Of a DNA stretch of 62,745 nt, positions 7,685 to 51,722 are shown one piece after another. Source of the stretch: a virus (taxonomy: Duplodnaviria > Caudoviricetes). The notes beneath the pieces were generated by a model. The model saw only the letters and a list, made by a program, of their open reading frames with translations, was not told the origin of the DNA and searched no databases. The position numbers were made by a program, and so were the translations under genes. The stretch is taken from the IMG/VR virus record IMGVR_UViG_3300030090_000213, positions 1 through 62,745 of that record. One strand, written 5' to 3'. Position 1 is the first letter of the stretch. The number at the start of each line of letters is the position of its first letter.

Positions 7685-8714
7685 TATTGGAGATATATCT
7701 GAACTAAATGGTTCAGCACAAATTGTAAGAGATAAACCTTACGAAGCTAATTTAAAGTTTGCTATACAAAGCAATGATGAAGCTATAACTAAAAATGGTC
7801 GTATGGCTATTACTTTTTTAGATGATTCAACTGTAAAGCTAACTGAACACTCACAGCTTTTAATAGATGAATATATCTATGACCCTGACCCAAGCAAAGC
7901 AAAGATGGCTCTTACCTTTGGGCTTGGTACAGCAAGGTTTATTACTGGTAATCTAAACCGCATAGATAAGCAAAATATATCTTTAAAAACACCTACTGCA
8001 AATATAGCAATTAGAGGGACTGATTTTACGGCTACAGTTGATGAACTAGGGCGTAGCCTTATAATATTGCTACCAGACGCTCTAGGGCTTTCTAGTGGCG
8101 AAATAGAGGTAGTTACAGCTATGGGTACAGTTTTATTAAATAAACCTTATCAAGCCACTACTGTAGATGTATTTGAGAGCTCACCTACTAAACCTGTAAT
8201 ATTAGATTTAACATTAGATATTATAGATAATATGTTAATTGTTACACCACCTAAAGAAGAAGATATTGCACAAGAAGAAACAGCAACAACTAAAACAGTT
8301 AATTTATTAGATTTTAATGATTTAGATATAGATTATTTAGCAGAAGATTTTTTAGAAGATAATAGTTTAGAGTTTACAGAATTAGATATTAACTATTTAG
8401 ATGTTAATTTTCTTGAAGATTTATTAAATGTTTTAGATGCTTTAGCAATAGAAAAAGAAGAGGACCAATTAGCTTTAGCTACAGGTGTAAATATTTCTGG
8501 TACTTTAATTGGTCAAGATACAGACACACAGATAACTACAATAGTAACAGGACAAGTTATAAGTTTGCGTAGAAAAATAAGCGAATCAGTACAAATAGAT
8601 TTAAACTCAGGAAATGGCTATACAGTAATTTTGATACAAGATGGAGTATCTAATATAGTAAAAATAAATGGTGGAGGAGACTCTGTTATAACAATTAATC
8701 AAAGTAGCGGATGA
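7599..8714 (+). CDS. FecR-domain protein
   Basis: Signal peptide; ITFLDDSTVKLTEHSQL and KTPTANIAIRGTDF motifs. Confidence 0.8.
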   Translation: MTGLKFYLLAIVVLCALFKTTKVQAQAADIGDISELNGSAQIVRDKPYEANLKFAIQSNDEAITKNGRMAITFLDDSTVKLTEHSQLLIDEYIYDPDPSKAKMALTFGLGTARFITGNLNRIDKQNISLKTPTANIAIRGTDFTATVDELGRSLIILLPDALGLSSGEIEVVTAMGTVLLNKPYQATTVDVFESSPTKPVILDLTLDIIDNMLIVTPPKEEDIAQEETATTKTVNLLDFNDLDIDYLAEDFLEDNSLEFTELDINYLDVNFLEDLLNVLDALAIEKEEDQLALATGVNISGTLIGQDTDTQITTIVTGQVISLRRKISESVQIDLNSGNGYTVILIQDGVSNIVKINGGGDSVITINQSSG

Positions 8715-25500: not shown

Positions 25501-28500
25501 CAAACCAACATATCAATATTCTCCAGAAATAAAAGATAGACAAGCTAGTTTAATTAATGATGTGCCATTATTTAGTAGAGGTAGAAGAGATAGTAAAAGA
25601 AAGTGGGATGAACAATATTATTATGTTGCTAAAAAAGAAGATGCTAATAGAATTTTAAAAGAAGGTTTTGCTGTTGATGATTCACAATTTTTTTATAATC
25701 CAGATACAGAAATAGAAACTCCAGGATTAGTAGTATTTACTAATCCAGTAGATGCTATTGCTTATCATAGAAGCGTAGATTGGAGAGAAGAACTATCTGA
25801 TTTAGTTTTAATAGCTGTTAAAAAAGGTACTGACAGAGATATTGGTGCTTTAAATTGGCAACCTAATCCAAATTCTCTTGGATTACAAGGTCAACTACGA
25901 GGTCTTAGTGGAGAAAAAACTAAAGGATTACTTAAAGATGAAACAAATACATCTTTATATTTAGATGCAGATAATAATTTAGATTATTTTAAAAATGTTA
26001 ATAACATATTAGGTAGTGCTACATTAGAAGAACTTACTCAAACAAAAATTAATCCATACTTTGGTAGAGCAATAGATAGAACTGGTGAAGTTCCGCAAAG
26101 ATTTTATAGTCCTGAAATGACTGATATGGGAGACCCATTACCTTCAGAACAAGTTAAATCTGTTATGGAAGGTAAAGGATTACCTATGAAACCAATAGGT
26201 AATGAAACAAGAGGTTTAGCTTCATCAAAAGAAGAACTTGCAAATATTGTTACTAAATATATGAATGATATTGCTAATATATTAAATCCACCACCAAATA
26301 CACAAAAAAATATACAATTAAAACAAGCAATAGAAGAAGCCGAAGAAACAGTTAAACAAACACCTAGGGGTTCAATACCTTATTATAATTTAAATGCCTC
26401 AGACACAGCTTTAAAGATTGCTATAGACTTTAATAAAGACTTATCTGCTAAGGCACCTGATGATATACCTAATTTTTCAAGACCTACTCTTGATGGATTG
26501 CAAGATAATCTACAAGAGTTTATTAAAAGAACAGGTGGAGAAATATTACCTGACCAATCTTGGGGTGCAAGAGTAATAGAAATTGTCAAAGACCCTATTA
26601 CATCTATTAAAAATTTCTTTAAAGAGTTTAGACAAAGATATATTGACCAATACGATACTGCTACCAAAGTACTATTAGCTGGTAAAAATAAAGAATGGTA
26701 TTTAAAAATAGATGAAAGAACAGGTAAATTAAGAATAAATCCTAAAACTGGAAAACCTTGGACAGAAGAAGAAGCAATAGCAGCAGCAGAACAAGTAACT
26801 CTTGCTAATATGTTTGCAAATGCAGGTGCAGAACAATCAGTAAGAATGTCTGATAAATCAAGAGGTGTATTTCAAGGTATGCTTACAAGAGGAATACCAA
26901 CTGATTTAATAGATGGAGTTGAATCTTTAGTAAAAACAATACCTTTACCTCTTGTTGATGCTAATGGTAATAAAACTGGTAAAACAGGTGGTCTTATACA
27001 AATACTTGCACCATTATTTTCTAATCTTAAATTAAATTTAGAAGCTGTTTTTAAAAGTTATGCTATGTTAAAAAGAGCAAAAAGTCTTGATGAAAGTGGT
27101 AGAGAAATAGATACACCAGTTAAACCTAAAGACTATGTTCTTATACAGCAAATAGAACAACAACATCCTGAAGTGGTAGAAGTTTATAATAATTATCAAA
27201 ATTGGAATAATGCTTTAATTAAACTTGCAGAAAGAAAAGGTATTTTAAGTGCAGAACAATCTGCATTATGGAGAGAACATTCTTCTTATTATCCTTTCTA
27301 TAGGCAAATGGTTGATGATAGTGGCATTAAAGGACCTAAAATTGCAGGTGGTTCACTACCAGGAAATCCATTAGATATACAAATAAAAGGTTCAGAAGAA
27401 ATTATTGACGCAGACCCAATAGAAGCTATATCAAGAAACTCATTATCTATTCTTACAGCAGCATTAAAAAATGATGCAATGAATAAAATAGTTACAAACT
27501 TAGAAACAATGGGATTAGCTCAAAAAATATCTGCAAAAAACGCAGGTACAACTGATAGCTTATTCTTCTTTGAAAATGGTAACAAGCAACACTATCAGGT
27601 AGATGACCCTAGACTGGTCTATAGTTTACAAAATGTTGGAGGAGTAGCTCCAGGTGCTATAGGAAAATTTTTAGCAGTACCAGCAGGGCTACTTAGAGAT
27701 ACAGTTACAAGAGACCCAGGCTTTGTTGTTATAAATATTTTAAGAGATACCTTATCTTCTGCTGTAACAAGTGGTGCACCATATACGCCTATCATTGATT
27801 CAGTTAAAAATATGTTTGGTAGCATGGAAGAATTAGAACAGTTTGGTGTTCTTGGTGGCTATGACTATTCTGTTGATGAGGGTAGTGTAAAGCAATTTAT
27901 TACTAGAACTATGCGACAACAGGGACTTACACCAAATAATGGTATGTCTCCTACAAGTGCTTTCTTTAAGCTATGGGATGGTCTTGGAGCACTTACTACT
28001 AAATCAGATGGTGCAACTCGTAAAGCAGTCTATGATGGTGTTTATAAACAGTTAAAAGAGCAAGTTTATAGAAATCCTAAAACTGGTAAATACGAAAATA
28101 TGCCTGAAGCAGTTGCACAATCAGAAGCGGCTTATCAAGCACAAGAAATAATTAACTTTGGAAGGCGTGGTTCTGATTCATTATTTAGAATTATTACTGC
28201 TGCAATACCATTCTTAAATGCAAGAATACAAGGTCTTGATGTATTACATAGAGGATTAACTGGACAATATTCTGCTGTAGAAAAACAACAAGTTGGAGAA
28301 TCACTAAAAGATGTGCAATCAAGAATATTTAGAAGAACATTCTTTAATGCAGGATTACTTGTAAGTCTAACAGCACTTTACTACATGATGGTAAGTGATA
28401 CAGATGAATACAAAAATCTTAAACGAGAAGTAAGAGATGATAACTGGGTCATGCCTATAGGCAATGGTAATGCAGTTAAGATACCTATTCCATTTGAAGT

Positions 28501-29329
28501 AGGTATGTTATTTAAAGCTATACCAGAAAGAGTATTTGATATGACTATGGGCGATGATGCTTTTACAAGAAAGTCTGTTGATGAAGCTATGACATCTATT
28601 GGCAGACAGGCTCAAACTTCTTTCAACATACCATTCTTTCAACCTGGTGGTGGAATACAATTATTAAAACCAATATCAGAAGTAATAAATAACAGAAATA
28701 CTTTTACTAATACAGAGATTGTTCCCTACTATCAACAAAAGAAAGAACCTGGACTACAATCAAGACCAACTACCAATGAGTTTGCAAGAGTATTAGGTGA
28801 AGCTCTTAATTTATCTCCTGCAAAGATAGAGCATGTTATGAGAGGTTATACAGGAACACTTGGTGGATATGTATTAAGTGTTATAGATACTATCACTAGA
28901 GGAGCTACAGGAAGTCCTCTAATACCTTCCAACTATCAACTAAGTAAAATGCCAGTCTTTAATAGACTATTACTTGATTTAGATAAGTCGGGTGGTTATC
29001 AGCAACAGTTTTATGAGTTAAGAAATGAGGTTGACAGGGCAGTAGCAACTATCAACTCTCTACAAAAACAAAGAAGATTTGATGAACTATCAGCTTACAG
29101 AAGCAATATGCAAGGTGTGTTGAATGTCAAAGGTCAAGTGAGAGCGATAGAAAGATACTTAGATAACTGGAGAAAGCGTAGAGATAGAATCTATCAAGAT
29201 GAAAACCTATCTATAACAGTCAAGTCAGATATGATAAGAGATTTAGAACTAGAAAGAGATATGCGACTAGCTATGGTTCCTGAATTGAGGAAGAAAGCTA
29301 ACATTCCTATTTTCAGTCTTAACCTCTAA
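19589..29329 (+). CDS. Giant polyvalent internal virion protein (3246 aa): two zincin-like HExxH motifs, ParB-like motif, ADP-ribosyltransferase-like segments, C-terminal LPD38-like domain
   Basis: HEMIH and HEGIH; SHEGRHRV; LFRAL...FASTT...EAEV; C-terminal IPFLNARIQG, KIPIPFEVG, SPAKIEH...GYTG motifs. Confidence 0.75.
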   Translation: MAEYDIGKGKKIKIPDNLDPETRLQLAEVVKDKYGIDINQTSALGQVGEFIKAIPRGAAGLALDVPTGIVGLFDIGNDSNLYKGLEGLQDRLREDSALAADPRYADKYSTKLGEGIGSFGPFLGAGMVGRALAKAPGAAKGILSPTFTAPTALAIPTGIAAQGDRLQMAREMGEDVSGLTETTAELFGGLIGITEVLPVASILGKVSSKTDLNIKERLVSALQSGAFEGGQEVAASILQDLTAKGLYSEDLPIADSMFEEFTIGGIIGGAADLVVTSMAGKSSARRKQLEEDNLRADENKAQLINAKKADLAMEQGTLEEIQDIPPTIVPQLIAPEELGVEPSVEVIMTPQEQFAVVDITNPEAPAQVDIKDTEIEAIKVRDKITKDFNNKKLKSKLDNDTYNLGLINSSTAYEIGQSLEDSRASDVTIQQLINSVPKDSKQEVILRGLVNSFVAQNPGKTSRSYPRLSMTKAKELLTPKQFNEFASAYAQGVFKASEKNGEPSIVADKDKPNTSAKYIKEIAESKNIDLDFQSPAVQYAAEKYTGTPEFKKMKKGQKELFLAKLHSLPKFNSRTTFPDFRPRDYSAQDMADFVAEMKSNNMTFNKASLKQMDRNEQFLDDLIYSNRAEKIEGTNNYKIRDNFEFDIARRAEGFNETPEEFGARLTAEGKLPPETIAELVQQETTKQERLLPPAEVIPKTINYAETLEQGKTNKFAQEIRKTMDARGLKETGIVISDDIISTSTLRQIEGEIKYDPSQVRATETQGAVEGEYDRNTDTIFLSLNAVNPDGSATDVEIQERLNKVLDHEMIHALRAKDLITKAEYSYLTKMVKQTKFPKQNQTFYQEAINRTKREFENRNLTDAFKEEYIVEEAIAELFRQKDLLVNTPPKVEGIYNKIIEFFKSMGQAMRSSGYKSATEIFNDIESGRIGRRERGVVRTTRIGDKGLQSFNFATDFSQLDESAVRPTIIPGDEIKQTLKPTGIRPLTIPKPKPTPPTPPAGPTTPPATPSTTPTTIYNTKKLTDKEYIAERSKILKGLQDAKVLDKDIFDKDGNVTKTIKGNNDSIKMMKWLIDNSPSQDYKIIAQKVHKSLLALKKQGRTFPLKLEVGEKQPDMRGTGQAAIQPSDMNPMEPYNYKTFTMLVNDGSLKRINAFANTSEWRRGNGVHFEALLHEGIHQATLAQIYAAQHNLITRKGTKTFQESASGKKVKAAHKELAIQANRVKGYYQERMRFYKNLAAKITKRETAEIQKKAIEEYKSIYNNAPTIEKDLADIYIIKDSTGFIYARDDNSFNGVSVQKRMFNDYRIKYQLFSNEAQYNEDVSELLTFGLTNRDFQEMLEYIPLGKDATNSVWNKFVETIRKLLEIPAKLNTELSAFLKNASTLLDLKTEGLIAPTPVGETAAPIDKEIPTFSRAADQAYFNRERRNQIISNLEAGIKNKQAQLNQERGLMTDATAKRLEREIINQRNEIAELKAGDLPFFSRAATETQPPYMDFNRQQIRDFSSNKVGFYNGVEIPLTHVTRMNVDDFLKLSTISQNQIDEIIEEGPSVFGFSQQDEPGSFKPINNRRMADAVFDPEIADTALTASLPSLQIKNDGQVISHEGRHRVALIKQGGGRTVPVFIHFPEGNVEQNIPNPSGQTLQEQGVTFLKNQYPGIFKDEYGDFQTNEFSRFAVPINKLREIAPLHRDSAQTKDKLDYAVQVATAPDILESTKDTVASASEYDIRMARFLASQDIPTFSRTNLIPKDTEVPFDWASNNRFETGAIIDQLKMSREEGGNRDNPAPLKMAIVEAFKGRKNRPLLRASKKFLEKFTNKKGNLVLFRALNIPEGEKIKNYGQLPQDLFASTTLDSRKALEIGRMLFNRAKEERSETWNIEILRYEVPMSKVKGYVPMLLKAMESDYITDFRSDMAGSGIMYQEELDAAIEEADAKGDFYKYQGEQTIEELFADAMYKYEEYIAEAEVVADLRGIKPTYQYSPEIKDRQASLINDVPLFSRGRRDSKRKWDEQYYYVAKKEDANRILKEGFAVDDSQFFYNPDTEIETPGLVVFTNPVDAIAYHRSVDWREELSDLVLIAVKKGTDRDIGALNWQPNPNSLGLQGQLRGLSGEKTKGLLKDETNTSLYLDADNNLDYFKNVNNILGSATLEELTQTKINPYFGRAIDRTGEVPQRFYSPEMTDMGDPLPSEQVKSVMEGKGLPMKPIGNETRGLASSKEELANIVTKYMNDIANILNPPPNTQKNIQLKQAIEEAEETVKQTPRGSIPYYNLNASDTALKIAIDFNKDLSAKAPDDIPNFSRPTLDGLQDNLQEFIKRTGGEILPDQSWGARVIEIVKDPITSIKNFFKEFRQRYIDQYDTATKVLLAGKNKEWYLKIDERTGKLRINPKTGKPWTEEEAIAAAEQVTLANMFANAGAEQSVRMSDKSRGVFQGMLTRGIPTDLIDGVESLVKTIPLPLVDANGNKTGKTGGLIQILAPLFSNLKLNLEAVFKSYAMLKRAKSLDESGREIDTPVKPKDYVLIQQIEQQHPEVVEVYNNYQNWNNALIKLAERKGILSAEQSALWREHSSYYPFYRQMVDDSGIKGPKIAGGSLPGNPLDIQIKGSEEIIDADPIEAISRNSLSILTAALKNDAMNKIVTNLETMGLAQKISAKNAGTTDSLFFFENGNKQHYQVDDPRLVYSLQNVGGVAPGAIGKFLAVPAGLLRDTVTRDPGFVVINILRDTLSSAVTSGAPYTPIIDSVKNMFGSMEELEQFGVLGGYDYSVDEGSVKQFITRTMRQQGLTPNNGMSPTSAFFKLWDGLGALTTKSDGATRKAVYDGVYKQLKEQVYRNPKTGKYENMPEAVAQSEAAYQAQEIINFGRRGSDSLFRIITAAIPFLNARIQGLDVLHRGLTGQYSAVEKQQVGESLKDVQSRIFRRTFFNAGLLVSLTALYYMMVSDTDEYKNLKREVRDDNWVMPIGNGNAVKIPIPFEVGMLFKAIPERVFDMTMGDDAFTRKSVDEAMTSIGRQAQTSFNIPFFQPGGGIQLLKPISEVINNRNTFTNTEIVPYYQQKKEPGLQSRPTTNEFARVLGEALNLSPAKIEHVMRGYTGTLGGYVLSVIDTITRGATGSPLIPSNYQLSKMPVFNRLLLDLDKSGGYQQQFYELRNEVDRAVATINSLQKQRRFDELSAYRSNMQGVLNVKGQVRAIERYLDNWRKRRDRIYQDENLSITVKSDMIRDLELERDMRLAMVPELRKKANIPIFSLNL

Positions 29330-29647: not shown

Positions 29648-29722
29648 TTGCTTTCCTCCCAGAAAACAATTGACTGGTAAATATTTTTTGGAGCTGCAAC
29701 CCAGCAGCGTCAAAAATATTAT

Positions 29723-30106
29723 TTACTGGTCTATTTTTTTTATCACCAATTCACATCTAGGATTTTCTTTATCAATCCCACCATATTTATAAATAACTTT
29801 TTTAATTTGTTTACTACTATCATCCTCTAACACACCTGCTTTAACTAAAGCATCGCAAGTAAACTTGTCAATAATAGAACAAGGATTACTTACATCTAGT
29901 CTTCTTTTACTTTTTGCATAATAGGTATAAATCAATACAACAGGTTCTTCGTATTTAGGATGACTAATCCTATCAACTAAATTGTCTGCATAAATCTTCT
30001 TGGCATTTGATAGTGTTCTGTAATGAGCATTACGATAGTTGTTTAAGTTAAGGATAAACTTCTTATTCTTTGTGTAGTAAACCTCTAGGGGTAAATCAAT
30101 CTTCAT
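29723..30106 (-). CDS. RusA-like Holliday junction resolvase
   Basis: RRLDVSN...KFTCDALVKAGVLEDD catalytic aspartate pattern. Confidence 0.8.
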   Translation of the reverse strand: MKIDLPLEVYYTKNKKFILNLNNYRNAHYRTLSNAKKIYADNLVDRISHPKYEEPVVLIYTYYAKSKRRLDVSNPCSIIDKFTCDALVKAGVLEDDSSKQIKKVIYKYGGIDKENPRCELVIKKIDQ

Positions 30107-37919: not shown

Positions 37920-38127
37920 CTTCATAATTATCACTTGTAATCGCTCCACTAAAGATAGCTTTGCCCTCTTGTTCAGCAGTATCTTCTTCAATAGATATGT
38001 TCTGCTTATCAGCTTCACTATGTATCATATGAATAATTTGCTTGTTAAGTGAGCGACTTTCTTTCTTAGCCAAAGAATGTGCCAATTCGTAGGTTTCTTC
38101 CGAACATCTAATGAATAGACTTTTCAT
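37864..38127 (-). CDS. Arc-like ribbon-helix-helix transcriptional regulator
   Basis: MKSLFIRCSEETYELAHSLAKKESRSLNKQIIHMI matches the Arc/Mnt pattern (RSLN.QI); AAGGA RBS. Confidence 0.75.
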   Translation of the reverse strand: MKSLFIRCSEETYELAHSLAKKESRSLNKQIIHMIHSEADKQNISIEEDTAEQEGKAIFSGAITSDNYEAKLGLQGIVETKKQDFSD

Positions 38128-38422
38128 AGTTATCATCCTTAAAAATAATTTGCGGACTATCTTGCACTTCTGCAATAGCAACACTTTCTCTACCAACTTG
38201 ATAATACCTATCTTCTTCTAATTGCTTTATGGCACTTTCAATTAACCATTCGTTAGACATAATTAAAGGGTCATCTAAAAGAGATATAGCAAAGGCAAGA
38301 GCATCTAGTTCAGTTTCAAATATCCATACAAAATGTTTCCATTTAGCACTAGATTTAGTTGAATAAGCATTACTTGGCTCAGGTATATCTAAATGATATG
38401 TGTGTCTTATTACCGCATACAT
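38108..38422 (-). CDS. Hypothetical protein (possibly near-leaderless)
   Basis: ATG at 38422, about 8 nt below a TATAAT box. Confidence 0.55.
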   Translation of the reverse strand: MYAVIRHTYHLDIPEPSNAYSTKSSAKWKHFVWIFETELDALAFAISLLDDPLIMSNEWLIESAIKQLEEDRYYQVGRESVAIAEVQDSPQIIFKDDNYEKSIH

Positions 38423-38430
38423 AAGCAATT

Positions 38431-38459
38431 ATTATACTGCAAAATGCTATCAAAGTGAA
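38431..38459 (-). promoter_or_regulatory. Sigma70-like promoter for the hypothetical + Arc-like genes
   Basis: TTCACT-17 nt-TATAAT on the minus strand; spacer contains the TTTGATAGCA motif. Confidence 0.5.
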
Positions 38460-38716
38460 ATACATATTGTTCCACATGGAACATTTATCCTACTGCTGTG
38501 TTTCCGACACCCGTGGTATTTCCTGACAAAAATAAAATATTTACCAGTCTATTGTTTTACAACGCCTCATCACGCCTACTGCTGTATTATTAAACACTAC
38601 AGGTTTCTGTCATCTCTGGACTCAGGCTAAAAAAATATTATTTACCAGTCAGGGATTTTTTGATAGCAGGACTTGGTGGTATGTCAACTATCTTTATAGA
38701 CTATCAACCGACTACC

Positions 38717-38747
38717 AAAAAAAAAGGGACAATCTTGCGACTATCCC
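38717..38747 (-). terminator. Intrinsic terminator of the putative sRNA
   Basis: GGGAUAGUC-GCAA-GAUUGUCCC followed by U9. Confidence 0.8.
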
Positions 38748-38833
38748 TTTAAACTTATAAACATAAGCTTGGAGGTTAATATATGAAATTGTATTGGAAA
38801 TAAAATTAAAAAATCACGCAATCAAATATTAGT
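38717..38833 (-). ncRNA. Putative ~115-nt antisense sRNA complementary to the shared RBS of the early genes
   Basis: Bounded by a sigma70 promoter and an intrinsic terminator; contains UUUCAUAUAUUAACCUCCAAG; no ORF on this strand; 5' end estimated. Confidence 0.6.
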
Positions 38834-38839
38834 TTCAAT

Positions 38840-38868
38840 AATATAATGTATTTGATAGCAAATTGCAA
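38840..38868 (-). promoter_or_regulatory. Sigma70-like promoter of the putative sRNA
   Basis: TTGCAA-17 nt-TATATT on the minus strand. Confidence 0.6.
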
Positions 38869-38871
38869 GAG

Positions 38872-38914
38872 TTATTAACAACTTTTTAACACTTTTTCCA
38901 CAGACTTATCCACG
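38872..38914 (+). promoter_or_regulatory. DnaA-box-like array
   Basis: TTATTAACA, TTTTTAACA, TTTTCCACA (fits TTWTNCACA), TTATCCACG at 11-12-bp spacing. Confidence 0.4.
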
Positions 38915-39069
38915 GCTTAAAAACCAGTAAATATATTATCTTCAGTCCACTTCAGAAATATCAATGTCAACACGACCCCACCCCAAACAACACCAGTAAA
39001 AACAATATACCAGTAAATATTTTTACCATCAATTTTTTTGATGGTAAACACATCCACTTTTTTTAGACC

Positions 39070-39114
39070 AAAAAAAAAGGCGGGACACTACCTTTTACAG
39101 TAGCATCCCGCCTT
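39070..39114 (-). terminator. Intrinsic terminator closing the early operon
   Basis: GGCGGGAUGCUACU-loop-GGUAGUGUCCCGCC followed by U9, directly after the last ORF. Confidence 0.85.
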
Positions 39115-39121
39115 AATTTAT

Positions 39122-39424
39122 TTATATATCTTGCACTTCAACTTCTTCAATTTCATCTTTAGCTGTAAATCCAACAACCTCTACAATGTCATCATTAGCT
39201 GTAAATCCAAAATGTTTTGGGTTAGGGATGTTTAAGTTTTCCCTTTCCTTATATAAAACATCTTGCACTTTATGATTAATTGAAACCAAAGTATTAAAAT
39301 ATTTAACTAGAGCCAAATCAATATCTGATTTTTCTTCTAGTTCCCTATTAATCTTTGTATAGATTTCGTTGCAAGTTCCTATGTTTACTTTCAAAGTAAA
39401 TTCTAACAATTCCCTATTAGTCAT
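39122..39424 (-). CDS. Hypothetical early protein
   Basis: 100 aa, ATGA-coupled to the upstream gene; short duplicated GFTA.D.I.EV motif. Confidence 0.6.
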   Translation of the reverse strand: MTNRELLEFTLKVNIGTCNEIYTKINRELEEKSDIDLALVKYFNTLVSINHKVQDVLYKERENLNIPNPKHFGFTANDDIVEVVGFTAKDEIEEVEVQDI

Positions 39425-39648
39425 TCTAAACCCCCCATACCTTTTAATGTTCCAAAACTATGGGTAAGAACAAATTCATCATCATCTAAATTAGTATCAA
39501 GTTCTGCAGATAACAACTCGTTAAATTCTTTTGGATTTTCTTCTTTAAGTGTTTCTGCCATTTCAATACATCCCTTAAAAGATGATATATTGTCTGTTGC
39601 TTGAAATAATATTTCTGCAACTGTTTCTATGTCGTTATTAATACTCAT
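39421..39648 (-). CDS. Hypothetical acidic early protein
   Basis: 75 aa; CTTGGAGG RBS. Confidence 0.65.
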   Translation of the reverse strand: MSINNDIETVAEILFQATDNISSFKGCIEMAETLKEENPKEFNELLSAELDTNLDDDEFVLTHSFGTLKGMGGLE

Positions 39649-39682
39649 AATAATTACCCCTCCAAGGGCAGTTAAGTTAAAT

Positions 39683-39741
39683 AAACTGTTTCATGCCTTT
39701 AGGCAATCATCAGTAGAAAATACACATTTTCTATACAGTTT
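39683..39741 (-). ncRNA. Hammerhead ribozyme, type III (HH1)
   Basis: AAACUG-UA^-UAGAAAAU-GUGU-AUUUUCUA-CUGAUGA-U-UGCC-UAAA-GGCA-U-GAAA-CAGUUU; predicted GUA cut between 39734/39733. Confidence 0.85.
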
Positions 39742-39874
39742 TGGCAAAATTGTCGCTAGGAGAACTCGCCTGTTGCAAAGTTAAGAGTAGGTTAAGGGCA
39801 TAAGATACCCTAAAAAACCCTACTCTTAAATCGCATTAGAAAATTTCTATCTGTGTTTAGTCAGATAAAAATAT

Positions 39875-40570
39875 TTACCAGTCAATGGTTTTATCAGCAT
39901 AAATGATTTCATCTTCATTCCTATTACTTAAATACGCAATAGCTTCTGATTTATTAATAGTCTTTTCAAAAACTTCATAATCAAAATTAAATCTATTAGC
40001 AAACCATTCAGCTATTTCTTTGCTTAAAGTCCAAGACAATCCTTTATCATTAAGACCACCTCTATAGATTTTTATTTTATTAGGAAGTTTATCAAAGTAT
40101 TTTTTATCATCATCGCACATAATTAAATGTTTATCTTTGATAAAATAATCGTTTAACAAAAAATACCAATAATCTAAATTTTCATAGACATTTTCAGTAT
40201 CACACCAAATATATCTAATTAAATCCCAATACTCATCAGCTTTTGGCTTCCACCATTGCTGTATGGCATCGTAAACAAAAGGCACTCTATAAGGTCTTGT
40301 AATAAAATTTACAATTTCCATATCGTTATTTGATTTAGCTTCTTGAAATGCTTTGCTTTTAGCTTCATAACTTTTATTAGCTATATCTATTTGCAAAGGA
40401 TGTTCGCTGTAATATCCAACATAAAACTTATGATGTATCATTTTCATTCCACTTGACAATGTAATAACACATTTAGCTAGTTCGCTGTTAAGTTTTATAT
40501 CTTCATCAACATCATTAATATTTTTAATGCTATAAATTATATCTTCATTGAGTTTTTTATTTATATCCAT
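39875..40570 (-). CDS. Hypothetical early protein, C-terminal ADP-ribosyltransferase-like motif
   Basis: True start ATG 40570 after CTTGGAGG; IYRG...GLSWT...A.WFA...RNEDEII resembles the R-S-E ART pattern (inference). Confidence 0.6.
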   Translation of the reverse strand: MDINKKLNEDIIYSIKNINDVDEDIKLNSELAKCVITLSSGMKMIHHKFYVGYYSEHPLQIDIANKSYEAKSKAFQEAKSNNDMEIVNFITRPYRVPFVYDAIQQWWKPKADEYWDLIRYIWCDTENVYENLDYWYFLLNDYFIKDKHLIMCDDDKKYFDKLPNKIKIYRGGLNDKGLSWTLSKEIAEWFANRFNFDYEVFEKTINKSEAIAYLSNRNEDEIIYADKTIDW

Positions 40571-40604
40571 AATAAAAGACCCTCCAAGGTCAGTTAAGTT
40601 AAAA

Positions 40605-40657
40605 TCCTGTTTCATGGTTTCCCAATCATCAGTTGCAATACACATTGCAAAACAGAA
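40605..40657 (-). ncRNA. Hammerhead ribozyme, type III (HH2)
   Basis: UUCUG-UU^-UUGCAAU-GUGU-AUUGCAA-CUGAUGA-U-UGG-GAAA-CCA-U-GAAA-CAGGA; predicted GUU cut 40651/40650. Confidence 0.82.
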
Positions 40658-40726
40658 AATTTGACTAGCAAAGAGAAAAATATTTACTGGTAAATACTTT
40701 TCTCAACGCTAATCTGCTAGAAATTT

Positions 40727-41548
40727 CTAGGCTTTTTTCTTCCTTGGTCTAGGATAGATTTCAGAAGTTCCAAATAACTTCTTCTTTTCTTCTGCAGTTC
40801 CAAAGTGAACTATAGCTTTAAACAATCTTCTAACCATGGACTGTATTGCTAAAGTTTTTTGTTCGCCAGTTCTAGCACACACTTTAGGCTGTAATCTAAC
40901 AACTTGTCTTATGGTTAGTTGTTTTTCTTCATCAGACCAAAGACCCAAGGCTTGATTATGCAAAGAAGCATACAATCCATTCATAAATCCACCACGAAGA
41001 TTATCTTCTTGTAGAATTTTGTACCCTCTTATTGCCATACCAAGAACATCTAAATCTGAATATCTATAAGACCCAAATGATGTCCAATCAATAATTTCAT
41101 CAGACACACTTGATTTACTTACAGCTTCTTCAAGTTTAGACTTCATTGCAGTATTAATATCAGAATTTTCATCTAAACATTTATTAATGATGTTAGTTGT
41201 TTTATCAACTGTTGATTTTTTCTTTGCAGAAAATACATCAACGACATTTGCATTTACAACTGGCACCATTCTTGATGTAAGTTCATCAATAACATTTGTT
41301 TCAATACCCAATTCTCTAGCCATTTCTCGTAAAGCATTACCTCTACTTTCATGGTCATCTAGTAAACTGGCAACTACAATCTTTTCTAATTGCTTTTCAG
41401 ATTTAATCATCTTTGAAAACACATAAAAAAGTTGTGTTGAAATATCAATACTATATTTATTCTTCACATTTTCTAACCATGTTTTAGTTTCATCTGAAAC
41501 ATGAGTAGAAACTGGAGAACACTCGTTTTTATAATTATCATTTTTCAT
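40727..41548 (-). CDS. Hypothetical early protein
   Basis: ATG at 41548 after CTTGGAGG; possible N-terminal ribbon-helix-helix. Confidence 0.65.
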   Translation of the reverse strand: MKNDNYKNECSPVSTHVSDETKTWLENVKNKYSIDISTQLFYVFSKMIKSEKQLEKIVVASLLDDHESRGNALREMARELGIETNVIDELTSRMVPVVNANVVDVFSAKKKSTVDKTTNIINKCLDENSDINTAMKSKLEEAVSKSSVSDEIIDWTSFGSYRYSDLDVLGMAIRGYKILQEDNLRGGFMNGLYASLHNQALGLWSDEEKQLTIRQVVRLQPKVCARTGEQKTLAIQSMVRRLFKAIVHFGTAEEKKKLFGTSEIYPRPRKKKA

Positions 41549-41580
41549 AATTATATGTCCCTCCAAGGACAGTTTTTAAG

Positions 41581-41637
41581 TTTCTGATTTCATGCTTTTG
41601 CAATCATCAGCCAAGATACACATCTTGATATCAGAAA
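41581..41637 (-). ncRNA. Hammerhead ribozyme, type III (HH3)
   Basis: UUUCUGA-UA^-UCAAGAU-GUGU-AUCUUGG-CUGAUGA-U-UGC-AAAA-GCA-U-GAAA-UCAGAAA; predicted AUA cut 41629/41628. Confidence 0.85.
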
Positions 41638-41701
41638 TTTGATGCGGGAAGAAAAAATATTTACTGGTAAATACTTTTTCCTCCCCACCATGTTGTCGTG
41701 A

Positions 41702-43030
41702 TTAAAGACTAGAGAAATCTATAGCAACTTTTTCTCCAAAAGGAAGTTCATTGCTCCAATTATTCTCGCCACCACTTAATGCCCATATTACTGGAACATT
41801 TGGCTCAACTTCTGAACTACATTGTCCATACGCATCTGTAAAGTAGATAAATGCTATCACATCATCTGTATCATCAGTATAGTCATTGTATAAGTTGAAA
41901 GGCGGGTCAAAATCAGTTCCGCCACCGCCACGACAGACAAGTTCCAACTCTTCACAATCCAAGTCGTATTCATCCCACCACTCGCCTTTTGAGTTTTTGT
42001 GGACAGTAGTATCACAATAACAAACTCTAATTTTATTGATACCGCACTCTTCCGCTAGGGAATTGATTTCAGTTGCAAAAACATTAAGTTCTTCTTCTGA
42101 AACACTACCGCTTGTATCAATAGCAATAACAAGTTCTCCGCCTTTTGGCTCTTTATCTCTACTAGGTAAATTAATCCCTCGCCAAGAATGTCTTTTATTC
42201 AATCTTGTCCAAGTAGGATTATTAGAGTAAACACTTTGCAATAAATCTCGCATCACATCTACCCAATCAACATAACTTTCGTTTAGCTGTTCCATAGCTT
42301 TTCCAAAACCACCAGTAGGATTTTCTCCAATACTATCTAGCTTGTCAGCCATTGTGATAGTTCTTTGAAGTTCCTCTTGTAGTTCAGCCATTTCAGTAGG
42401 CGATAATTCTTGTCCATTTTCATTAGTTGGCATCCAAACTTCGCCACTAGGTAATTCAACATCAGCAAGTTTCTCTTCAAGAGATTTACTTTGTCCATTA
42501 CCAGTAGCATCAGTATCAGCATCTTCGTTAGCATCCGCATCAGTATCAGCATCAGCATCGCTATCAGAATTGCCATTATCAGAATTAGATTGCAAATTCT
42601 CTAAAGCATCGTTTAAAGCATCTTCATCATTAGATAAAGTTCTATAAACTTGCTCTGCACTTTGTCCCTTATACTTCCTATCAATTAATCCGCCCTCTGG
42701 TAAAGGCATATCTAAATCGTATGCTATCCAAGAGTTAATTACATAGTCAGTTGCTATGTTCCAAAGTTCGTGATTTCGCTTCCCTTTTCTTAAAGGATGT
42801 TCCCAAATAACATGACTTGCTTCGTGAACTAATACTGCTTGGATTTCTTCATCTGATATTGATTTAACAAATTCATCATTCCAATAAATATTAATTCCAT
42901 TTGTAGCCATAGTTTTACATCGCTCATTATCCTCAATCAAAGTAAGTTTTAATAACATAGTAGCCATACCAACATTACCTTTCATAAGTTTCGCTCTAGC
43001 TTTAATCATTCGCTCTTCACTATTTAACAT
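41702..43030 (-). CDS. Metallopeptidase + VWA domain protein (DUF2201-like)
   Basis: MATNG, VLVHEASH, WNIATDYVIN, acidic linker, MIDAS IDTSGS, GGGGTDF, YFTD; ATG 43030. Confidence 0.85.
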   Translation of the reverse strand: MLNSEERMIKARAKLMKGNVGMATMLLKLTLIEDNERCKTMATNGINIYWNDEFVKSISDEEIQAVLVHEASHVIWEHPLRKGKRNHELWNIATDYVINSWIAYDLDMPLPEGGLIDRKYKGQSAEQVYRTLSNDEDALNDALENLQSNSDNGNSDSDADADTDADANEDADTDATGNGQSKSLEEKLADVELPSGEVWMPTNENGQELSPTEMAELQEELQRTITMADKLDSIGENPTGGFGKAMEQLNESYVDWVDVMRDLLQSVYSNNPTWTRLNKRHSWRGINLPSRDKEPKGGELVIAIDTSGSVSEEELNVFATEINSLAEECGINKIRVCYCDTTVHKNSKGEWWDEYDLDCEELELVCRGGGGTDFDPPFNLYNDYTDDTDDVIAFIYFTDAYGQCSSEVEPNVPVIWALSGGENNWSNELPFGEKVAIDFSSL

Positions 43031-43062
43031 AATTAATTCCTCCAAGAATTTTATTTATGAGT

Positions 43063-43115
43063 TTCTGTTTCATGGTTTCCCAATCATCAGTTGCGATACA
43101 CATCGCAAGACAGAA
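43063..43115 (-). ncRNA. Hammerhead ribozyme, type III (HH4)
   Basis: UUCUG-UC^-UUGCGAU-GUGU-AUCGCAA-CUGAUGA-U-UGG-GAAA-CCA-U-GAAA-CAGAA; canonical GUC cut 43109/43108. Confidence 0.87.
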
Positions 43116-43166
43116 GCAAAGAAAAAATATTTACTGGTAAATAGTTTTTCCCTGCAACTCATTGGC

Positions 43167-44141
43167 TTACTTTTTATACATATCGTTTAAAAATCCGCCT
43201 TTCATTTCATCTGCTAAATCACTAACACTATCTTTTAAATCATCTGCAAGTTGTTTTCGCTTCTTGTCAGTATAATCATCATCATCACGAAGTGAATTAA
43301 CATCATTTATTTTTGCAAAGACAGTAACTAAATTTTGATGTGCTTCCGCTATCTTTTTGTCATTCCCTAGAATGTCAGAATTGATACTTGGAAGAGTATC
43401 TAAAAATTGTCTAAACTTATCAAAAGATGAATTTTTGAAAAACCCTCCACCTTTTGTTTTTGGGTCATAAGAACTTAACTTATCAGCTAAATGTTCTACA
43501 CTTTCCAAAAGAGTTTCAACAGTAGTTCTAGTTATTGCTTCAACATTTTTAGTTGCTCTTTTTAATGCATCGCTTTCAATCTTCTTGCGAAGTTTTTGTG
43601 ATACATTTAAACGAATATCCTTACTATTAAATTGTGGAACAGTACCAAGTTCAAAATCAAATCTGAATTTAGTCGCTATTTCATCTTTAGTTGGATAATC
43701 AGACAACTTAAAAGCATCGCCAAGTTTGTATTTATTCGCTTCAATCAAATTATCATAATTATCAAGAAACTCTTTAACTTCTTTATCAAAGTCAACTTTA
43801 GCATCGTTCACTTTATCCATAAGTGTATCAAGTTCTTGATTGGGACATAATCTCCAACCGCTTAAAACTTTACCCTCAAAGTCGCTAGTATTATCATCCC
43901 AAGGGACAGTCATAGGATAAAAATAGTTATACCTAAACTGATTGATAATTCTACGAAAATACTTATTCGTTTCCTTACCAAAGATATACTTCGCAACATG
44001 AAGTGAACTTTCATATGCTTTTTGGTCTATTGCTAGACCCTCTTTTAAATCCTTATCTGATTTAATACCGCTTGGATGCTTCGTTGTAAGTCGCACTAAA
44101 GTTGCATTTTCAGATAAAGTATTTGCATTTTCTTTTTTCAT
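43167..44141 (-). CDS. Helical phage protein (DUF3150-like), partner of the AAA/VWA pair
   Basis: T.PW.D...GWRL.P...F...Y......LG..F...DYP pattern; ATG 44141 after CTTGGAGG. Confidence 0.6.
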   Translation of the reverse strand: MKKENANTLSENATLVRLTTKHPSGIKSDKDLKEGLAIDQKAYESSLHVAKYIFGKETNKYFRRIINQFRYNYFYPMTVPWDDNTSDFEGKVLSGWRLCPNQELDTLMDKVNDAKVDFDKEVKEFLDNYDNLIEANKYKLGDAFKLSDYPTKDEIATKFRFDFELGTVPQFNSKDIRLNVSQKLRKKIESDALKRATKNVEAITRTTVETLLESVEHLADKLSSYDPKTKGGGFFKNSSFDKFRQFLDTLPSINSDILGNDKKIAEAHQNLVTVFAKINDVNSLRDDDDYTDKKRKQLADDLKDSVSDLADEMKGGFLNDMYKK

Positions 44142-44173
44142 AATTAATTCCTCCAAGAATTATTTATTAATAA

Positions 44174-44229
44174 ATTCTGATTTCATGCTTTTGCAATCAT
44201 CAGTTGGGACTACATCCCAATATCAGAAT
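44174..44229 (-). ncRNA. Hammerhead ribozyme, type III (HH5)
   Basis: AUUCUGA-UA^-UUGGGA-UGUAG-UCCCAA-CUGAUGA-U-UGC-AAAA-GCA-U-GAAA-UCAGAAU; predicted AUA cut 44221/44220. Confidence 0.85.
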
Positions 44230-44286
44230 GAGCGGAAAAGGAATATTTACCAGTCAATAATAAATATTCCTAGTCGCTTCGTGAGT

Positions 44287-45351
44287 TTAGATTTCTAAAT
44301 CTTGGTTATCAATTTTGAATTTAGAATATACATCGCACTCTTTGAGTTCGTTTCTTAATCCAGTAATTTTTCTAACAAAGAATATAGAAAATTCTACAGT
44401 TGAAAGTTGCTTCAAATAATTTAAAGCATTTTCAAAGTAGTCATAAACATCGTTGTCATTCGCTCCATTAATTGCAGTTGTTAATGCAATCGTTGTCGCA
44501 TAGCAAAGACCCGCATTATCTACAACTTCAACATTTTTGCCCTTACATATATCAGATATGTTTGGCACATCATTTTGAAGTGAAATAAAGTTCATAAGTT
44601 CAATCGCACTTTCTTGACCAACATCGCCCTCAAACAATTTTTGCATCAATCGTTTTGGCGGGTCAGTTTTCAAAGTATCGCTTAACCTTGTCCAACTTCT
44701 TGGACTTGGCTGTGGGTCATTACATTTAGGGTCAAAGTCCCATAGTAGCTGTGGCATAAATCTAATAAGTCCTTGAACATTTAAGTCAATGTCGTTCTTA
44801 TCAGCCCACTCTAACCAATCATCTACATCGTGAGTAAACTGGATAGCAGTAGTTCTATCTTGGCAATGCCTTAATATCTTATTTGCTCCGCTTCTATCAG
44901 TATGTCTATTACCCGCTAAAACAATTTTCCACCCACTAGGAAAAACATAATCGCCTATTCTTCGCTCTTCGTTTTTTCCTTTTGGGTCTAGTAATTGTCC
45001 TATCGTTGCTTGAACTGATGAATGTGCTTGTGCAAATTCATCCAAGAAAAATAGACCCTCGCCACCTCTAGGCAAGTTGCCTAAAAATGCTTTCTTTTGA
45101 GTTCCCTCTTCAATGTAAGGCAACCCTCCCAAGTCAATACTTTCAACTAATCCCAATCTAAAAGAGATAAAACCAAATTCATCTTCTTTTGGATTAGTGT
45201 TATCAGTCAAAGTACGACCATTTGCTATTTCCTCCGCAATCTCTTTAACTATTGCGGATTTACCAACTCCAGTACCACCAATTAAAAATGGAATATTACT
45301 CCCTTTTAAAATATGTAGACATGAAGTTTTTGCTTCACTAGGTTTAAACAT
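44287..45351 (-). CDS. MoxR-like AAA+ ATPase
   Basis: Walker A GGTGVGKS, Walker B LFFLDE, DLGGLP, VLAGNR, PSPRSW; ATG 45351. Confidence 0.88.
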   Translation of the reverse strand: MFKPSEAKTSCLHILKGSNIPFLIGGTGVGKSAIVKEIAEEIANGRTLTDNTNPKEDEFGFISFRLGLVESIDLGGLPYIEEGTQKKAFLGNLPRGGEGLFFLDEFAQAHSSVQATIGQLLDPKGKNEERRIGDYVFPSGWKIVLAGNRHTDRSGANKILRHCQDRTTAIQFTHDVDDWLEWADKNDIDLNVQGLIRFMPQLLWDFDPKCNDPQPSPRSWTRLSDTLKTDPPKRLMQKLFEGDVGQESAIELMNFISLQNDVPNISDICKGKNVEVVDNAGLCYATTIALTTAINGANDNDVYDYFENALNYLKQLSTVEFSIFFVRKITGLRNELKECDVYSKFKIDNQDLEI

Positions 45352-45403
45352 AATTAATTCCTCCAAGAATTTTAAGTTTAATATTTGTTAGCAATTTGCT
45401 AAC

Positions 45404-45464
45404 ACCAATAACATCCCAAATAGTTGAGATGTTTTCATAGCATTTCAGCTAATCATCAGTTGGT
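45404..45464 (-). ncRNA. Hammerhead ribozyme, type I (HH6)
   Basis: ACCAA-CUGAUGA-U-UAGC-UGAAAU-GCUA-U-GAAA-ACAUCUCAA-CUAU-UUGGGAUGU-UA^-UUGGU; predicted UUA cut 45409/45408. Confidence 0.8.
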
Positions 45465-45599
45465 TTGAATTACCTTATCTATTTCTTTGATAAGTTCTTT
45501 AGCACTAGAAGTTTCTTTTAAAGTTTCCCACTCTTCACTATCAACTATGTGTTCAAGTGTATCTTTAATATCTTCTAATAGTTCTTTATCAATTTTCAT
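45456..45599 (-). CDS. Small acidic early protein (47 aa, not in the ORF track), first gene of the early operon
   Basis: CTTGGAGG RBS; MKIDKELLEDIKDTLEHIVDSEEWETLKETSSAKELIKEIDKVIQTN; stop UGA lies in the HH6 core. Confidence 0.7.
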   Translation of the reverse strand: MKIDKELLEDIKDTLEHIVDSEEWETLKETSSAKELIKEIDKVIQTN

Positions 45600-45617
45600 A
45601 ATTTAACCCTCCAAGGT

Positions 45618-45695
45618 CAGTTTCTTGTACCCAACCATTTACTAACACCATGTTAGTAAACTGGACACTCATTCAGCACGTTAATTCGTGGACTG
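45618..45695 (-). ncRNA. Divergent hammerhead-like element (HH7) with core insertions
   Basis: CAG-UC^-CACG-AAUUAA-CGUG-CUGAAUGA-long stem II-AA-GAAA-CUG, in the same position relative to the RBS as the others. Confidence 0.5.
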
Positions 45696-46052
45696 TTGGA
45701 GCAGTCCCAAAAGTTATATATCTTTAAGATTGATTATTAAAATTAATTAGTCTTTATAAGTTCCTTTATCTATAAAGCAAAAAGATACTTTCCTCTTGGT
45801 TTTGCGGGTCTTGTTAAAATCATCACGACTTGAACTAACCTATTGTTACGCACTAGCTACTTTAAGAGCGAATTCCTTATTGGACTGGACTGACCTTTTC
45901 TTCCCAATAAATCTTGTTGGACTTTTTTAACACCCTCCAACACTAGCACTAGGGCTGTTGATTTAACAACTCTTCAACTTTACCTTTTTCAAGACCCTTG
46001 CGGGTAGTTGGCTACAGTTTAAAGACATAATCGTTTTGGTCTGTGTAGAAAC

Positions 46053-46081
46053 AGTATAAGGCAAGTGAACATCATCTGCAA
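46053..46081 (-). promoter_or_regulatory. Sigma70-like promoter of the early operon
   Basis: TTGCAG-17 nt-TATACT on the minus strand. Confidence 0.6.
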
Positions 46082-46168
46082 CATCATATTAAATATTTAC
46101 CAGTCCACTATTTTTGCTATCGTTTTGTGAGCATTATATTTTCTTCATATCTGCGATAAGATTTATGC

Positions 46169-51092: not shown

Positions 51093-51288
51093 TGATATAA
51101 ATGAGCAATCACTATCTACTTTCTTAGTTAAAAAATTAAGAGAAATGATGAATGAATGTTCAGACCATATCTCAACAGGAAGTTGTAAAGACTTTGCTGA
51201 TTACAAAAAAATGACAGGAGTTATAGAAGGATTAGCTCTTGCAGAGCGTGAAGTTCTTGATTGGAAAGAACAACACTTAAAACAATAG
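51085..51288 (+). CDS. Hypothetical protein
   Basis: 67-aa ORF between portal and GroES-like gene. Confidence 0.6.
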   Translation: MSNDINEQSLSTFLVKKLREMMNECSDHISTGSCKDFADYKKMTGVIEGLALAEREVLDWKEQHLKQ

Positions 51289-51317
51289 GAACTCGGCACC
51301 TTAAAGTCGTGCAATAT

Positions 51318-51722
51318 ATGGATAAAGCAAAAAAAATAAATATCCCAAAACCAGAAAGTGTTAAAAAACCTGAACCTAGTGAAGATGTTAAAAGTCAACT
51401 TCCAGTTCCTAAAGGTTGGAGAATACTTATAGCTATGCCTGAAGCACAAGAAAAAACTGATGGCGGTATCATAAAAGCTAGTCAAACTAAAACAAACGAA
51501 GAAACTTCAAATATTTGTGGTTATGTTTTAAAGTTAGGCACAGAAGCTTATTGTGATGAAAATAGGTTTCCTACAGGACCTTGGTGCAAAGAAGGTGATT
51601 GGGTAATATTTAGAGCTTATTCAGGTACTCGTATGAAAATGTATGGTAAAGAGTTTCGTTTAATTAACGATGATACTGTGGAAGCAGTAGTTGATGACCC
51701 AACAGGAGTAGTTAGAGCATGA
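51318..51722 (+). CDS. GroES-like co-chaperonin
   Basis: P.GWRILI...EKTDGGII...G.VLKLG...GDWVIF..YSG......GKEFRLINDD.V.AVV. Confidence 0.85.
   Translation: MDKAKKINIPKPESVKKPEPSEDVKSQLPVPKGWRILIAMPEAQEKTDGGIIKASQTKTNEETSNICGYVLKLGTEAYCDENRFPTGPWCKEGDWVIFRAYSGTRMKMYGKEFRLINDDTVEAVVDDPTGVVRA

Follow-up and report, generated by a model that had tools for sequence, protein, structure and literature searches.

A candidate self-dicing operon: hammerhead-type elements between the genes of a marine tailed phage

Are the hammerhead-like RNAs that follow one another between the genes of a marine phage operon genuine ribozymes and, if so, what would become of the transcript that carries them? This question is raised by IMG/VR record IMGVR_UViG_3300030090_000213, a complete virus record of 62,745 bases which has been analyzed over its whole length (hereafter, the window). 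On the minus strand, between 39.7 and 45.7 kb, an operon encoding an AAA ATPase, a DUF3150 protein and a DUF2201 protein carries a single hammerhead-type element in each of its intergenic spacers: five are of type III, one is of type I and the seventh is a core variant. The original prediction, made from the letters of the window, was that these elements cut an early transcript into single-gene mRNAs. The analysis described here shows the motifs, their conservation and covariation in related phages and their fixed placement, and the elements of the window are very probably true hammerheads. The full statement, according to which true hammerheads are transcribed leftward within the AAA/DUF3150/DUF2201 operon and self-dice the shared transcript into hairpin-ended single-gene mRNAs, is considered probable, with appreciable room for doubt.

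Six canonical hammerheads in the window

The type III hammerheads are located at 39682-39741, 40604-40657, 41580-41637, 43062-43115 and 44173-44229, all on the minus strand, with cleavage predicted after GUA, GUU, AUA, GUC and AUA and new 5' ends at 39733, 40650, 41628, 43108 and 44220, respectively. In these copies, stems I and II are closed and the successive parts are the 5' strand of stem III, U16.1, H17, the stem I hairpin, CUGAUGA, stem II, GAAA and the 3' strand of stem III. The type I hammerhead, in which stems II and III are closed, was recovered as a descriptor match at 45404-45464 (minus strand) and would be cut after UUA, so that 45408 would become the new 5' end. In this copy, CUGAUGA shares nucleotides with the TGA that ends a 47-aa open reading frame (ORF). 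The core C3 U4 G5 A6 N7 G8 A9 ... G12 A13 A14 is present in all six canonical copies, H17 being A, U, A, C, A and A in them and C in the seventh element. The stem I loop of the type III copies is GUGU (once GUAG), and their short stem II carries an NAAA loop. All seven elements, six canonical hammerheads and a core variant, were found where the original prediction had placed them on the minus strand, and the stem sequences, the NUH triplets and the six new 5' ends that it had listed match those given here.

Searches over the whole window single out the same copies. The strict descriptor retrieves the five type III copies versus no match in 100 dinucleotide shuffles. R1, a covariance model built from four of these five copies, was run unfiltered over all 62,745 bases and returned only the five, with scores, in the order of their coordinates, of 47.5 bits (39682-39741, the copy which was not a seed of the model), 78.5, 77.7, 80.6 and 75.0 bits; the next best match in the window reaches 13.3 bits. 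When folded in isolation, five of the six canonical copies adopt the hammerhead as minimum-energy or centroid structure, the minimum-energy fold of the type I copy being the hammerhead fold with a z score of -3.6. Stem II is not recovered when 41580-41637 is folded alone. A type II hammerhead descriptor found nothing in the window. One relaxed type III match, at 10141-10210 on the plus strand, was discarded as a chance match, probably spurious: it lies inside a coding ORF and is missed by R1.

Conservation of the array in related phages

The phage which carries the array is marine, tailed and HTVC023P-like. Large-terminase identity is 52-61% with two Pelagibacter phages, HTVC027P and HTVC023P, as well as with two phages of uncultured marine origin, and marine-labelled DNA sequencing runs contain most of the window (20 rows, from 5 named studies). 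A megablast search of the 7.2-kb array region against cultured phages gave no match, and HTVC027P, whose terminase is 59% identical, has a different replication module and no R1 match. The relatives analyzed below are 35 viral contigs chosen by a DUF2201 protein 60-93% identical to that of the window, and counts given for the family (n=36) refer to the window together with these 35 contigs. The same arrangement was sought in these related phages, and the array is present in the 35 contigs, with 107 R1 matches distributed over all of them, every one on the gene strand.

Comparison of the 61 distinct type III sequences provides the main evidence for hammerhead identity. Paired cells amount to 95.1%, versus 68.2% in shuffled alignments and 30-53% with slid partners, changes on both sides are seen in 14 of 17 pairs with covariation in all three stems, and none of 500 shuffles reaches the observed covariation score, figures which all come from alignments fitted to the structure of the model and from contigs that are related to one another, some being nearly identical. 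C3, U4, G5, A6, G8, G12, A13, A14, A15.1 and U16.1 are each found in 61 of 61 sequences, so that the A15.1-U16.1 pair is invariant, and A9 is found in 60. N7 varies freely (U in 46, C in 7, A in 5 and G in 3), and H17, never G, is A in 45 sequences and C in the other 16. Such conservation is that of the hammerhead, and the claim that the stems covary around an invariant core was upheld across these copies, the core being free at N7. Loop I (GUGU in 52 of 56) and loop II (NAAA) are also conserved in the type III relatives while the stems covary, a pattern which suggests a possible tertiary contact between the two loops.

Occupancy of the spacers is equally regular. Between the AAA and DUF3150 genes, a hammerhead is present in 36 of 36 contigs (35 type III and 1 type I), as it is between DUF3150 and DUF2201 (30 type III and 6 type I). 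After DUF2201, where the next gene differs among relatives (p273 in 14, p232 in 5 and p75 in 2), a hammerhead is found in all 21 contigs with a nameable next gene. The 400 nt upstream of the ATPase gene contain a type I copy, the core variant (element 7) or both in 28 of 33 contigs, the other five being possibly descriptor misses. Two unlike type I ribozymes alternate in this last spacer, one with a U.U mismatch as in the window and the other canonical, with GUC and a G-C pair, stem I alone being shared by the two. Replacement of one ribozyme by another at a fixed spacer argues for selection acting on cutting at this place and not on a particular sequence. Placement with respect to the genes is fixed as well: of the 88 distinct type III contexts, 87 show a GGAG and a start codon 22-39 nt past the ribozyme (median 32 nt), and the sole exception is a context cut off by the end of its locus.

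The search was extended to viral contigs at large with a pattern comprising the core and stem II, which returned 99 stretches. On 71 of 78 scan loci, which hold at least one copy by construction, R1 gives 136 matches with no more than four per locus. Homologues of the ATPase, DUF3150 or DUF2201, at 23-96% identity, are encoded by 47 of these 78 loci, a group which overlaps partly with the contigs chosen by DUF2201. Distant ATPase and DUF2201 genes also occur in Vibrio phage D520 and Acinetobacter phage At2, with spacers of about 10 nt in which the descriptors found no hammerhead. Because these cassettes are devoid of such elements, the link with hammerheads appears to be a trait of the marine group and not of the cassette itself.

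Element 7, located at 45613-45702 (minus strand) and scoring 77.9 bits with a separate model, R2, is a three-way junction which resembles a hammerhead of type III topology and has a predicted cut after GUC, between 45691 and 45690. In the window, its core has 8 nt, one A being inserted between A6 and N7, two extra A stand between C11.1 and G12, and a 27-nt hairpin is inserted in loop II. Besides the window copy, R2 finds it in 32 of the 35 relatives (the three without a match are contigs cut off upstream) and twice in L078, a contig outside the relatives set. In this family, 98% of cells are paired, 7 of 15 pairs have changed on both sides and the score is attained in none of 500 shuffles. The 27 distinct copies comprise 17 with a canonical 7-nt CUGANGA (N7 being U, C or A), 9 with an 8-nt core including that of the window, and 1 aberrant; AA is present between C11.1 and G12 in 26 of them and a single A in the remaining one. 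The family has AAUUAA in loop I and, in many copies, AAUUA within loop II, so that the two loops could pair with each other. Element 7 is a hammerhead relative, of uncertain activity.

Several observations weigh against the identification of these elements as active hammerheads. No Rfam family matched the whole window at its gathering score, and a permissive E-value search of 7.6 kb returned no hammerhead; 16 related loci gave no Rfam hammerhead at the gathering score either. The best individual score was obtained when 43062-43116 was searched alone, with an end-to-end match to Hammerhead_3 (RF00008) of 29.6 bits for a gathering score of 48.5, so the Rfam filters lose array copies. The type I copy and element 7 have no Rfam hammerhead match, nor has L004:2166-2219, a textbook-looking copy with GUC and G-C at 10.1/11.1, in an 86-nt search. 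A canonical type I copy from another relative (L006) scores 30.8 bits with RAGATH-1-hammerhead (RF03152), over model positions 21-77, for a gathering score of 56.3. By the curated thresholds of Rfam, no copy is a member; the Rfam search put forward with the original prediction hence came back negative at this level, and routine annotation would miss the whole set. Stem II is also short in the window, with only three pairs and a U.U mismatch, and the minimum-energy fold of the window copy of element 7 is not the hammerhead fold. For insertions after A6, such as the one in the window copy of element 7, low activity is reported by Perreault et al. (2011; PMC3088659), and no description of an AA insertion before G12 was found in the passages of that paper which were consulted.

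The U.U mismatch deserves particular attention. In place of a Watson-Crick pair at 10.1/11.1, usually G-C, U.U is found in all six canonical copies of the window, and the 61 type III sequences of the family have U.U in 47, G-C in 13 and C.U in 1. According to Perreault et al. (2011; PMC3088659), the U10.1-U11.1 mismatch is natural, retains activity and is the best-tolerated mispair. Because an active natural variant has been published, U.U at this position lowers the case for hammerhead membership without excluding it.

In the vicinity of the type I hammerhead, on the opposite strand, a weak Rfam RAGATH-35 match was observed at 45422-45491 (24.1 bits for a gathering score of 38.9). The RAGATH-35 consensus includes a hammerhead-like core in reverse complement.

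From ribozymes to transcript processing

The unit lies between replication genes and divergently transcribed packaging genes. In the direction of its transcription on the minus strand, it comprises the 47-aa ORF at 45456-45599, for which no family was found, the AAA_5 (MoxR-like) ATPase at 44287-45351 (phrog_1297, E 1.8e-61), the DUF3150 protein at 43167-44141 (E 4.3e-07), a protein at 41702-43030 in which a domain search identified a DUF2201_N metallopeptidase-like domain and a DUF2201 VWA-like domain, a 273-aa protein without family match at 40727-41548, and a 232-aa protein of phrog_4776 (function unknown) at 39875-40573, the start of which was taken to be the ATG next to GGAG. Two small ORFs of 75 aa (39421-39648) and 100 aa (39122-39424) complete the unit and have no ribozyme between them; the latter had been predicted to be the only gene without one and to be translationally coupled, and the 4-nt overlap of the two ORFs is real. 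The only long spacer of the array is filled by an additional structured RNA of three hairpins and 131 nt at 39742-39872 (minus strand; z -6.0, with 0 of 200 shuffles folding as well), which is conserved before the last hammerhead in relatives and has no Rfam family match.

The terminator which had been predicted at the end of the unit is confirmed at 39077-39114 (minus strand), where 16 pairs, 8 of them G-C, are followed by a T run, making it the strongest site of its kind in the unit on this strand. Other terminator-like sites in the unit, namely two ribosome-binding-site hairpins, stem III of the type I copy and two intragenic sites, have 3-4 G-C pairs each. The promoter is a more delicate matter: the sigma-70-like candidate proposed before the unit, at 46053-46081 (minus strand), falls below the scan threshold, but both its -35 and its -10 are conserved when eight relatives are aligned with the window, and several of these come closer to TATAAT. 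The self-dicing reading of the original prediction is partly supported: hammerhead identity is strongly backed by the comparative data and the anatomy fits; a single promoter, an 'early' timing and protection from RNase E are features which we infer.

In the mechanism favored here, a leftward transcript of the AAA ATPase/DUF3150/DUF2201 operon would carry all seven elements, each of which would fold during transcription and cut after its own NUH triplet. The message would be split in this way into single-gene mRNAs, the last one holding the two coupled genes. The 5'-OH of each downstream product would immediately adjoin the stem I hairpin (a short hairpin in the case of the type I copy), with the GGAG ribosome-binding site and the start codon about 30 nt past the new 5' end, and each upstream product would end with a 2',3'-cyclic phosphate a few nt after a long hairpin. 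From this arrangement we infer cleavage in vivo, one transcript spanning the unit and an influence of the new ends on mRNA stability or translation. Self-ligation of the products into circular mRNAs was considered and rejected: on inspection of the sequence, the stem III strands of neighboring ribozymes do not pair with each other, and such products were sought, and none seen, by Perreault et al. (2011; PMC3088659).

The long hairpins contain a 13-nt dyad motif, ACYRGTAAATATT, which occurs in 18 copies in the window versus 1.0 expected, over a span of 9679-46104; most of them are minus-strand copies in the 37.6-46.1 kb interval. Strand reading and motif searches revealed a long hairpin at 41644-41687 with the invariant motif at its apex, similar hairpins at ~44240-44270, 43116-43155 and 40673-40704, and half-motif copies at 39870-39882 and 46092-46104, all on the minus strand. 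The outer stems vary by copy yet stay paired, and the apex sequence is invariant, also in relatives; these statements are based on visible examples, mirror-position pair counts being spoiled by coding-sequence matches and bulges. In 67 of the 88 distinct contexts, the motif lies 11-27 nt before the type III hammerhead, and in contigs L005-L010 the motif hairpin doubles as stem III of the type I hammerhead. The invariance of the motif suggests that a protein reads it. Elsewhere in the window, at the junction of two convergent transcription units, a hairpin of about 5 pairs is bracketed by two copies in inverted orientation (29673-29730). Over its full set of copies, the motif takes two forms, the apex of a long hairpin or a half-site.

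An invariant motif of this kind could also act as an internal promoter or operator, in which case the genes would not need to share one transcript. Each gene would then start its transcription at or next to the motif, and the hammerhead would trim a leader of 10-25 nt, remove the 5' triphosphate and standardize the 5' untranslated region in the manner of a RiboJ insulator, with no polycistronic dicing. The abundance of the motif, its recurrent position shortly before type III copies, the presence of a copy at the head of the unit (46092-46104) and the invariance of its sequence next to covarying stems are all in keeping with this scenario, which is nevertheless judged unlikely. In fact, no -35/-10 pair fits between motif and ribozyme, the copy in front of the unit precedes the conserved -35 instead of marking a start site, and no phage RNA polymerase gene was found in a search of the window proteins. 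Moreover, the type I ribozymes of L005-L010, which contain the motif, need transcription from upstream, favoring read-through over a promoter at each motif. A distinct role for the motif can be envisioned within the self-dicing mechanism: ribozyme and dyad hairpin might form a two-part punctuation module, in which a phage or host protein bound at the apex would set the time of folding and cutting and thereby time or balance the output of AAA, DUF3150 and DUF2201, the 5'-OH and cyclic-phosphate ends shielding the mRNAs against end-dependent host RNases. This idea is speculative and decidedly improbable; if true, the module would be a natural protein-gated ribozyme array.

Two further explanations dispense with transcript processing. 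The module of hairpin, ribozyme and ribosome-binding site might serve mainly as a recombination boundary for the exchange of gene cassettes, cleavage being incidental or a relic, as could be suspected from the modules being near-identical repeats of 50-100 nt, from the differing gene after DUF2201 noted above and from the published remark that the genes next to such ribozymes vary (Perreault et al., 2011; PMC3088659). Recombination would hardly require invariant catalytic nucleotides amid drifting stems and a varying N7, nor a ribozyme of different topology in the same spacer of some relatives, and occupancy is complete even between the three constant genes; this possibility is accordingly held to be very unlikely. 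Alternatively, the elements could be non-catalytic structured RNAs, such as protein-binding three-way junctions with tandem G.A pairs, inactive owing to the U.U mismatch and the short stem II. All Rfam scores are indeed below gathering, and matches with a 10.1-11.1 mispair were rejected by Perreault et al. (2011; PMC3088659) unless their activity had been measured. The same paper presents U.U as the best-tolerated mispair, the canonical G-C pair is present in 13 of the 61 copies, and the core follows the hammerhead pattern down to its free N7, an H17 that is never G and the invariant A15.1-U16.1 pair. The absence of catalysis is, on this evidence, extremely unlikely, and the self-dicing operon is retained as the preferred reading.

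Comparison with known systems and neighboring features

Processing of a phage message between genes has a classical counterpart in phage T7, the early mRNA of which is polycistronic and cut between genes at hairpin signals by the host RNase III, leading to hairpin-ended messages. The ends differ: RNase III leaves 5'-phosphate and 3'-OH, whereas the array would cut itself, with 5'-OH and 2',3'-cyclic phosphate ends and no host enzyme. RiboJ-type insulators combine a self-cleaving ribozyme, a hairpin and a ribosome-binding site in order to obtain a standard 5' end irrespective of the upstream sequence. The array differs in being natural, serial and conserved, RiboJ being an engineered unit used singly behind a promoter.

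The closest parallel is found in the clusters described by Perreault et al. (2011; PMC3088659), in which multiple hammerheads flank individual prophage genes. Long phage transcripts processed into operon-length or single-gene mRNAs were proposed there, and three tandem arrangements were found to cleave during in vitro transcription. Like these clusters, the array consists of mixed-type, gene-strand hammerheads located between phage genes, with the same proposed role, and both the U10.1-U11.1 mismatch and the insertion after A6 are described in that paper. Several hammerheads on the gene strand flanking individual phage genes, the hallmark of such clusters, are indeed present here, in seven copies over 39.7-45.7 kb and with the same layout in the 35 relatives. 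In contrast to the clusters, the seven copies occur within 6 kb, one per spacer and with full occupancy in 36 marine phage contigs, and they are linked to an AAA/DUF3150/DUF2201 cassette and to an invariant dyad hairpin partner. HHphage of the haloviruses HF1 and HF2 (PMC3088659) is similar in that a hammerhead lies a few nt before a phage start codon on a polycistronic transcript, and a 5' end has been mapped near its cleavage site; it differs in that it belongs to an archaeal virus, occurs only once, has an insertion in its core near C3 and shows an activity which depends on salt.

The novelty of a one-per-gene array, as suggested in the original prediction, does not hold, since both the arrangement and the processing idea are already in PMC3088659. 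The array is a complete further example of a known arrangement; the concept is not new. In a 2019 review (PMC6765202), the roles of bacterial and phage hammerhead arrays are described as largely elusive. In the literature collection searched, no paper was found that links hammerheads with pelagiphages, DUF3150 or DUF2201, although the supplementary alignments of PMC3088659 may already hold members of this set, and the literature on one-per-gene arrays and on the function of the AAA/DUF3150/DUF2201 cassette yielded nothing specific.

For the concept itself, the array adds an example and not a principle. Its value lies in the lineage as a tidy natural test case, with a ribozyme per spacer, full occupancy, topology swaps, a fixed partner hairpin and one cassette, and in a widespread set of marine phage hammerheads, including the U.U copies and the AA-insertion subclass, which standard Rfam annotation misses. 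Specialists may take an interest in the prevalence of U.U, in the subclass with an AA insertion, in the exchange of topologies at a fixed spacer and in the invariant partner hairpin.

Non-coding stretches are found on both sides of the unit. Between the promoter candidate and element 7, a leader of about 330 nt at 45720-46050 (minus strand) contains blocks conserved in relatives, for example around 46030-45990, and may be a non-coding RNA or the site of a divergent late promoter. Beyond the terminator, a stretch of about 600 nt at 38430-39070 (minus strand) is likewise non-coding and carries copies of the dyad motif at 38536-38548 and 38637-38649 together with a second terminator-like hairpin at 38723-38750; a conserved 104-aa ORF comes next, at 38108-38422.

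The remainder of the window holds several genes of note on the plus strand. The structural genes are closed by a 3246-aa ORF at 19589-29329 with an LPD38 'large polyvalent protein' domain near its C-terminus; this protein was considered as a candidate RNA polymerase and rejected, as it is an LPD38 polyvalent protein in which no RNA polymerase signature was found. Tail-spike-like ORFs of phrog_4636 are present at both ends of the record (3-2207 and 59906-62743) and share an identical stretch, at 1887-1942 and 62513-62568, with the same weak R1 alignment; the record may be circularly permuted or contain two paralogous spike genes. At 7599-10465, a FecR-domain protein is followed by a fusion of a CHASE2 sensor with an adenylate/guanylate cyclase (Pfam E 1.5e-27 and 5.1e-19), an unusual signaling pair for a phage. 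Auxiliary genes of the kind found in marine phages were also assigned by PHROGs, namely a 2OG-Fe(II) oxygenase, a ferredoxin-family protein and a GroES-like co-chaperonin, at 2544-3248, 4079-4765 and 51261-51722.

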